Below are positions 16,312-16,386 of a DNA stretch of 64,000 bases, one piece after another. The DNA is from Cyclobacteriaceae bacterium (GTDB lineage Bacteria > Bacteroidota > Bacteroidia > Cytophagales > Cyclobacteriaceae), in NCBI GenBank assembly GCA_039917935.1, contig JBDSIM010000033.1, positions 3,148 through 67,147 of the forward strand, given 5' to 3'. The notes below the pieces were generated by a model. It was given only the letters and a program-made list of their open reading frames with translations. It was not told where the DNA came from and did not search any database. How positions within the stretch are numbered: position 1 is the first letter of the stretch; every line of letters starts with the position of its first letter. Position numbers and translations under genes: made by a program.

Positions 16312-16386
16312 CGGGGTGTAGCGCAGCCCGGTTAGCGCACCACGTTAGGGACGTGGGGGTCGGAAGTTCGAATCTTCTCACCCCGA
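16312..16386 (+). tRNA. tRNA-Pro with anticodon AGG (A34)
   Basis: Acceptor CGGGGTG/CACCCCG plus A73, D-stem GCGC/GCGC, anticodon arm CCACG-TTAGGGA-CGTGG, T-arm GGAAG-TTCGAAT-CTTCT. Confidence 0.93.

Follow-up and report, generated by a model that had tools for sequence, protein, structure and literature searches.

A natural tRNA-Pro gene with an AGG anticodon, conserved across a clade of free-living Cytophagales

The near-absence of tRNAs with adenosine at position 34 (A34) in prokaryotes is an open question. Beyond tRNA-Arg(ACG), the bacterial tRNAs with ANN anticodons that have been described are Leu-AAG and Thr-AGU of the Firmicutes and Mollicutes, the others being absent or scattered (PMC8007984; bioRxiv 10.64898/2026.05.15.725136). 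Reviews and a 2026 study treat Pro-AGG as absent from bacteria, which is considered puzzling as engineered versions are harmless (PMC8007984; bioRxiv 10.64898/2026.05.15.725136). Engineered Pro-AGG tRNAs keep an unmodified A34, are normally expressed, read CCC approximately as well as the G34 form and carry no fitness cost (PMC3711424; bioRxiv 10.64898/2026.05.15.725136). Where non-Arg A34 tRNAs are fixed in a bacterial clade, the genomes are described as 60-70% AT with a preference for U-ending codons in the box concerned (bioRxiv 10.64898/2026.05.15.725136).

Natural tRNA-Pro(AGG) genes have been recorded in Candidatus Amoebophilus asiaticus 5a2 and Blattabacterium BPam, which belong to the same phylum as the organism studied here (PMC3296467); Amoebophilus also shares its order, Cytophagales. 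The record, from 2011, takes up one sentence, and the Blattabacterium gene carries a pseudogene annotation (PMC3296467). Both organisms are endosymbionts with reduced genomes, whereas the clade described below is free-living, has genomes of about 7-8.5 Mb, carries the AGG gene clade-wide and has likely replaced the GGG isoacceptor with it.

The gene analysed here lies in a stretch of 64,000 nucleotides from a Cyclobacteriaceae bacterium, hereafter referred to as the window. It has the same anticodon and Pro identity set as E. coli proL G34A (bioRxiv 10.64898/2026.05.15.725136) and Salmonella proL207 (Chen et al. 2002, cited in PMC3711424). The two engineered genes are laboratory changes made in a GGG-type body with A32...U38, whereas the window gene is natural, fixed in its clade and built on a CGG-type arm with U32...A38. 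By analogy, the window tRNA would be expected to behave like the engineered Pro-AGG tRNAs.

The tRNA-Pro(AGG) gene

The window has a G+C content of about 38-46% and contains genes of Bacteroidota type, including a T9SS sorting domain, a SusC-like N-terminal domain and a GH116 glycosidase. Three tRNA genes were called in it by ARAGORN, namely Pro(AGG), Asn(GTT) and Ala(GGC). The features of the tRNA genes are as follows.

16265..16272, plus strand: -7 promoter box of the Bacteroidota type, TATATTTG (consensus TAnnTTTG), 40 nt 5' of the mature end
16312..16386, plus strand: tRNA-Pro with anticodon AGG (ARAGORN, Rfam RF00005 and reading of the sequence)
16391..16426, plus strand: two-tier hairpin GCCCGCC..GCTCCG-TCC-CGGAGC..GGCGGGC, directly 3' of the tRNA, with a T-run at 16443-16448
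5044-5165: tRNA-Asn(GTT) region with a TAnnTTTG box 40 nt upstream
34074-34223: tRNA-Ala(GGC) region with a TAnnTTTG box 68 nt upstream

ARAGORN reported tRNA-Pro(agg) at 16312-16387(+), and the Rfam RF00005 model matched 16312-16386 with 61 bits (E 9.5e-11), well above its gathering score of 29. The acceptor stem (CGGGGTG/CACCCCG) forms seven Watson-Crick pairs including C1:G72, the D stem is GCGC/GCGC, the anticodon stem is CCACG/CGTGG, and the T stem (GGAAG/CTTCT) includes one G-U pair. The anticodon loop reads U32 U33 A34 G35 G36 G37 A38, with A34 at 16347, G35 at 16348, G36 at 16349 and G37 at 16350; the discriminator base is A73 and the CCA end is not encoded. G37 provides the G36-G37 context for m1G37 formation by TrmD.

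The identity elements used by prolyl-tRNA synthetase (ProRS) are G35, G36, A73 and C1:G72, and position 34 is not used by the enzyme. The complete set could be read off the sequence. Since all of these elements are present and ProRS ignores position 34, the tRNA should be charged with proline. The sequence-only reading had proposed an intact tRNA-Pro with an AGG anticodon, a full Pro identity set and an upstream promoter box, and all three were confirmed, the first by ARAGORN, by the Rfam score and by the sequence, the second by reading of the sequence and the third by the box at 16265-16272. A 126-aa ORF on the minus strand (16283-16663) covers the entire tRNA gene and the hairpin, and is almost certainly spurious.

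Motifs of the TAnnTTTG type are promoter elements in Bacteroidota. Such a box was present on the same strand, 40-68 nt upstream, at all three tRNA genes of the window. The hairpin that follows the tRNA-Pro gene has a fold energy of -32.3 kcal/mol (z -3.3), which was equalled by 0/200 shuffled sequences. A simple terminator scan raised no flag at 16391-16426 because the T-run does not adjoin the stem, and the structure is probably a terminator or a 3'-processing hairpin. A duplication of the tRNA 3' end, which would mark an integration site, was absent within the window.

Conservation of A34 and origin of the anticodon

A16347 was covered without mismatch by independent soil-metagenome contigs (record 11 of run X3 and record 20 of run X4), the latter continuing into the window's own 3' flank, and the window region was recovered in several independent soil-metagenome runs. 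One genome from each of 185,579 species was scanned with a 40-nt pattern that allowed any base at position 34. The scan returned 55 matches at 54 loci, all of them in Cytophagales and covering about 50 species. The loci belonged to Chryseolinea, Chryseosolibacter, Ohtaekwangia and Imperialibacter, and the remainder to metagenome-assembled genomes (MAGs) labelled 'Roseivirgaceae', Cyclobacteriaceae or Flammeovirgaceae. A34 was found in 55/55 scan copies and in 4/4 isolate genomes, and G, C or T at this position of the tRNA body occurred in 0/55 matches. Two of the isolates (X89 and X90) carry the AGG gene with a T-arm variant that lies outside the reach of the 40-nt pattern; this variant, together with the AGG gene of Amoebophilus, indicates that the trait is wider than the 54 loci. 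The base at 16347, which had been flagged for a check against sequencing error, is thus supported both by independent assemblies and by every match elsewhere. The earlier view of a sporadic bacterial exception gives way to that of a trait which is vertically inherited and fixed in a Cytophagales clade spanning several families. No Pro-like A34 tRNAs were found on phages in IMG/VR.

The 51 full-length AGG copies comprised four sequence variants. Two acceptor pairs changed on both sides in a compensatory manner, 3:70 from G-C to A-U and 6:67 from U-A to C-G. The strict TAnnTTTG box was present in only 7/47 related loci; a relaxed TAnnnTTG box, typically in the form TAnnnTTGCA, was found within 80 nt upstream in 34/46, against a chance expectation of about 8%. 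The hairpin core was kept 3' of the AGG gene in loci L012, L034, L042, L045 and L053. Flanking DNA identity among relatives fell as low as 70-75%, the nearest relative among the loci compared being a Chryseolinea sp. MAG (locus L027, 95% identity). A block consisting of a P5C dehydrogenase, a YjjG-like nucleotidase and two small ORFs (the P5C-dehydrogenase/YjjG/orf11016 block) adjoins the tRNA in 21-27 of the 54 short loci. A protein search with the neighbouring gene gave in-clade matches only, all at 72% identity or more, and no GGG or UGG metagenome locus among the matches listed shared the block.

Contigs from RNA runs also contained the AGG gene with A34 (X24, X26, X27, X31 and X38), the contig of X31, a soil metatranscriptome, reaching a depth of 99. 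Across eight RNA runs, A34 contigs and no G34 variant were observed; these are assembled contigs with flanks, from which minor variants are dropped by assembly. The RNA-run contigs could be precursors or contaminating DNA.

Several further observations were made on the surroundings of the gene. In L012 (2990-3162) and L042 (442-675), the AGG gene is followed by two copies of the hairpin core AGCTCCGnCnCGGAGCG, with 150-220 nt between them. Hairpins of the 16391-16426 type may be a small repeated element and not solely a terminator. Several relatives also have tRNA-Asn(GTT) and tRNA-Ala(GGC) genes no more than 8 kb away from AGG, a sign that the tRNA neighbourhood may be loosely conserved. On either side of the gene, the window carries the following elements.

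11730-14135, minus strand: PAS/histidine-kinase gene
14248-14700, minus strand: response-regulator gene
16777-17232: TIGR02612
17287-17823: TIGR02613 with a Fic domain

The segment 11730-16000, with the kinase, the response regulator and unannotated small ORFs, separates the tRNA from the P5C-dehydrogenase/YjjG/orf11016 block, which lies within 1-3 kb of the tRNA in many relatives; the segment is a probable lineage-specific insertion. On the other side, 16478-18157 corresponds to a 'mobile mystery protein A/B' pair. This segment is missing from L027, which is elsewhere 85-95% identical to the window, and is therefore an insertion directly after the 3' hairpin of the tRNA.

Small ORFs for GIY-YIG nucleases (Pfam PF01541, E 2.4e-17) directly adjoin tRNA genes of the clade, mostly Pro-AGG or Pro-CGG and in one case Ala-GGC, at the following loci.

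L052, 5888-6313: GIY-YIG ORF
L017, 4618-4949: GIY-YIG ORF
L003, 679-1123: GIY-YIG ORF
L046, 1-330: GIY-YIG ORF
L032, 349-714: GIY-YIG ORF
L010, 5316-5652: GIY-YIG ORF

In L052 and L003, the ORF has an intact Pro-tRNA copy on one side and a crippled, partial one on the other, and in L018 and L002, partial AGG copies were observed upstream of the AGG gene. The GIY-YIG ORFs look like a selfish element that targets tRNA genes.

The anticodon arm of the AGG gene (CCACG-TTAGGGA-CGTGG) differs from the CGG arm of isolates X89 and X90 (CCACG-TTCGGGA-CGTGG) at position 34 only. With position 34 excluded, the arm differences to AGG, for references among the matches listed, were 0-4 for CGG, 4-6 for UGG and 9-10 for GGG; a GGG-type body or arm was accordingly not seen in AGG when compared with the Bacteroidota GGG genes among the matches listed. 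The loop bases U32 and A38 are of the UGG/CGG type, and not the C32-G38 or A32-U38 of GGG. Over the whole molecule, the nearest gene to AGG among the matches listed was a UGG gene (L059, 8 differences), with the CGG genes at 11-17 differences, and half-molecules are common to the isoacceptors of one lineage. Because L059 is nearest over the whole molecule, it is the anticodon arm, and the arm only, that speaks for a C34A origin. The proposal of a Pro-CGG-type body with a C34A change therefore holds for the arm, which equals the CGG arm except for nucleotide 34, and does not extend to the molecule as a whole. Judged by the arm, a C34A change in a copy of a Pro-CGG gene appears to be the most parsimonious route to AGG, and gene conversion could mimic such an origin.

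Independently of this question, the loops of 112 Pro tRNA genes (L055-L174, among the matches listed), which judging by their features stem from many lineages, were compared. The GGG genes almost always had C32...G38 or A32...U38, both capable of Watson-Crick pairing, and the UGG and CGG tRNAs in the same metagenome loci, among the matches listed, had U32...A38. It has been proposed that G34 tRNAs need a 32-38 pair, and the GGG loop pattern fits this idea.

Proline isoacceptors and decoding by A34

Four isolate genomes (Logan contigs, 7-8.5 Mb each) were searched for the other proline isoacceptors: Chryseolinea serpens (X44), Chryseosolibacter histidini (X68), and X89 and X90, which come from the same study as X68. 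The AGG gene and a CGG gene with an unchanged anticodon region were each found in 4/4 isolates, and in L052 a Pro-CGG gene lies ~410 nt downstream of the AGG gene. With a CGG isoacceptor alongside, the idea that AGG acts by super-wobble as the sole Pro decoder is not supported. A Bacteroidota-type Pro-GGG gene was found in 0/4 isolates when contigs were compared with two references at >=80% identity, a narrower search than a full tRNA scan. The reference L143 carries both genes, GGG and CGG, 112 nt apart, and the recovery of CGG with this reference in 4/4 isolates serves as a positive control. The first 49 nt of the GGG type are identical in five metagenome loci among the matches listed, so a GGG orthologue should have shown up, and Pro-GGG is taken as probably absent from these four isolates of the clade. 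The suggestion that AGG possibly replaces Pro-GGG fits these results, within the reach of a comparison with two GGG references.

The UGG isoacceptor gave a less definite picture. The UGG reference L059 attracted only the 5' half of the AGG gene in the isolates, which reflects poor sensitivity. A UGG contig that shares the AGG 5' half was present in the soil-metagenome run X4, at a depth similar to that of the window organism and without a tie to its genome. If Pro-UGG is missing in the clade, the decoding model changes.

The use of Pro codons was similar in the window (CCT 0.29, CCC 0.26, CCA 0.19, CCG 0.25) and in 400 kb of clade loci (CCT 0.25, CCC 0.26, CCA 0.18, CCG 0.32). No Pro codon shift was observed, the clade being indistinguishable from the GGG-bearing Bacteroidota loci among the matches listed. 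CCC is not depleted (0.26), which fits an A34 that reads CCC, and the codon use as a whole agrees with reading of CCU as well as CCC.

The anticodon loop of E. coli tRNA-Arg(ACG), the usual TadA substrate, reads C32 U33 A34 C35 G36 A37 A38. The Pro-AGG loop has the target base, A at position 34 (A16347), and departs from the Arg-like loop at 32, 35 and 37 (U, G, G). With an orthogonal tRNA in E. coli, deamination occurred for the anticodons ACG, AAG and AUG and not for AGG; it was lost when position 32, 37 or 38 was changed, and the AGG tRNA read all four Pro codons (PMC11066159). The genomic proL G34A tRNA of E. coli is unmodified and present at wild-type level (bioRxiv 10.64898/2026.05.15.725136), and in Salmonella the A34 tRNA-Pro is nearly equal to its G34 counterpart in reading CCC (cited in PMC3711424). 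Among the four A34 tRNAs of O. oeni, two, those for Thr and Ser, are unmodified (PMC8072771). The loop mismatch at 32, 35 and 37, taken together with the unmodified state of engineered Pro-AGG, favours an unmodified A34. No TadA gene was found within the window or any fetched locus.

We therefore favour, with moderate confidence, a functional tRNA-Pro(AGG) of single origin in the clade that has replaced GGG and most likely reads CCU and CCC through an unmodified A34. The gene would encode an elongator tRNA and have a promoter and a 3' hairpin of its own. The AGG anticodon would have arisen once, in the ancestor of the multi-family Cytophagales clade, when a C34A change in a duplicate of a Pro-CGG gene produced AGG, and A34 would have been kept by selection since. 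Beside tRNA-Pro(CGG), AGG would perform the task that GGG has in other Bacteroidota, the reading of CCU and CCC. A34, most likely an unmodified adenosine next to m1G37, would form a Watson-Crick pair with U and an A-C wobble pair with C; strong G-C pairs at the first two positions make the third position of the CCN box permissive. We infer both the CCU/CCC decoding range and the absence of inosine.

The main competing explanation is that a widened TadA converts A34 to inosine, giving a tRNA-Pro(IGG) that reads CCU, CCC and CCA and a box arranged like Arg ICG + CCG or the eukaryotic IGG. The two Pro genes found in 4/4 isolates, AGG and CGG, mirror the Arg pair ACG + CCG, no UGG gene was recovered from the isolates (at poor sensitivity), and A34 is strictly conserved without drift back to G. 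There is also a precedent, as the TadA of Oenococcus and Streptococcus has come to accept Leu-AAG (PMC8266599, PMC13249217). Set against this are a loop unlike that of tRNA-Arg(ACG) at 32, 35 and 37, the lack of deamination of an AGG anticodon in E. coli and its sensitivity to changes at 32, 37 and 38 (PMC11066159), the unmodified A34 of engineered Pro-AGG (bioRxiv 10.64898/2026.05.15.725136; Salmonella, as cited in PMC3711424) and the unmodified Thr and Ser A34 tRNAs of O. oeni (PMC8072771). CCA use is normal (0.18-0.19) although I-A pairing is poor, and the absence of G34 variant contigs from the eight RNA runs weakly points the same way. We consider inosine at this position unlikely, while still a serious contender. 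Its stronger form, in which the Cytophagales TadA has been widened to a loop with G35 and G37 and the Pro box consists of IGG and CGG without any UGG tRNA, is more doubtful again; if true, it would be the first bacterial I34 tRNA beyond Arg and Leu and an independent replay of the eukaryotic I34 expansion.

The AGG gene could instead be nearly neutral and fixed by drift, with the real decoding left to Pro-UGG and Pro-CGG, and perhaps to a GGG gene that went undetected. Engineered four-fold-box A34 tRNAs are mostly neutral in E. coli (bioRxiv 10.64898/2026.05.15.725136), and Pro codon use is unshifted relative to GGG-bearing Bacteroidota among the matches listed. Such a gene would hardly be expected to stay free of reversion and loss through 55 copies from about 50 species while flank identities are down to 70-75%, nor to show compensatory stem changes and a conserved promoter; with GGG undetected in four isolates, CCC and CCU would otherwise be left without a dedicated reader. 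Drift is accordingly an improbable account. Nothing was found in favour of an error at 16347 or of a duplicated Pro gene in decay, although some relatives do have crippled partial Pro-tRNA copies next to GIY-YIG ORFs. The base is A in the independent assemblies and in 55/55 copies, and the gene has a full cloverleaf (61 bits), a promoter, a hairpin and RNA contigs. Both an artefact and a pseudogene were rejected on the grounds of A34 in all copies and in independent contigs, and we give this explanation hardly any weight.

Comparison with known A34 tRNAs

Eukaryotic tRNA-Pro(AGG -> IGG) has the same anticodon at the gene level and replaces the G34 isoacceptor, as Pro-AGG probably does here. 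Eukaryotic tRNA-Pro is modified by ADAT2/ADAT3, whose choice of substrate is largely independent of sequence. Bacterial TadA is a homodimer with loop-specific recognition.

The tRNA-Leu(AAG) of Lactobacillales is likewise a non-Arg A34 tRNA of a four-fold box that is fixed in its clade, and its G34 isoacceptor is missing, as GGG probably is here (PMC8266599, PMC13249217). Position 35 is essentially the only point at which Leu-AAG, which is deaminated, departs from the loop of TadA substrates, whereas Pro-AGG departs at 32, 35 and 37. Leu-AAG is also associated with genome-wide Leu recoding in AT-rich genomes; the Pro-AGG clade shows no recoding, and the G+C content of the window is about 38-46%. 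The AT-rich, U-ending-codon character of clade-fixed A34 tRNAs was therefore not found here, CCT use being 0.25-0.29, as in the GGG-bearing loci among the matches listed. Mycoplasma tRNA-Thr(AGU) and the tRNA-Thr and tRNA-Ser of O. oeni are natural bacterial A34 tRNAs of four-fold boxes that are not deaminated (PMC3711424, PMC8072771). They differ from Pro-AGG in serving other amino acids and in belonging to Firmicutes or Mollicutes with small or AT-rich genomes.

We came across no earlier account in which free-living Cytophagales carry Pro-AGG clade-wide in place of GGG; A34 surveys or figures based on GtRNAdb may show it. Pro-AGG has been kept across dozens of species, apparently in place of GGG, and the clade, being free-living, cultivable and of moderate G+C content, offers a natural test bed for the avoidance of A34. 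Chryseolinea serpens and Chryseosolibacter histidini would represent either long-term tolerance of an unmodified A34 or a TadA evolved for the Pro loop. In codon-adaptation indices and tRNA-repertoire models of Cytophagales, the GGG isoacceptor should not be assumed. The window gene thus joins a rare known kind, the non-Arg A34 tRNAs that occur naturally and have become fixed in a clade of bacteria, and it does so with traits that are unusual for that kind: a moderate G+C content, no codon shift and a CGG-type anticodon arm.
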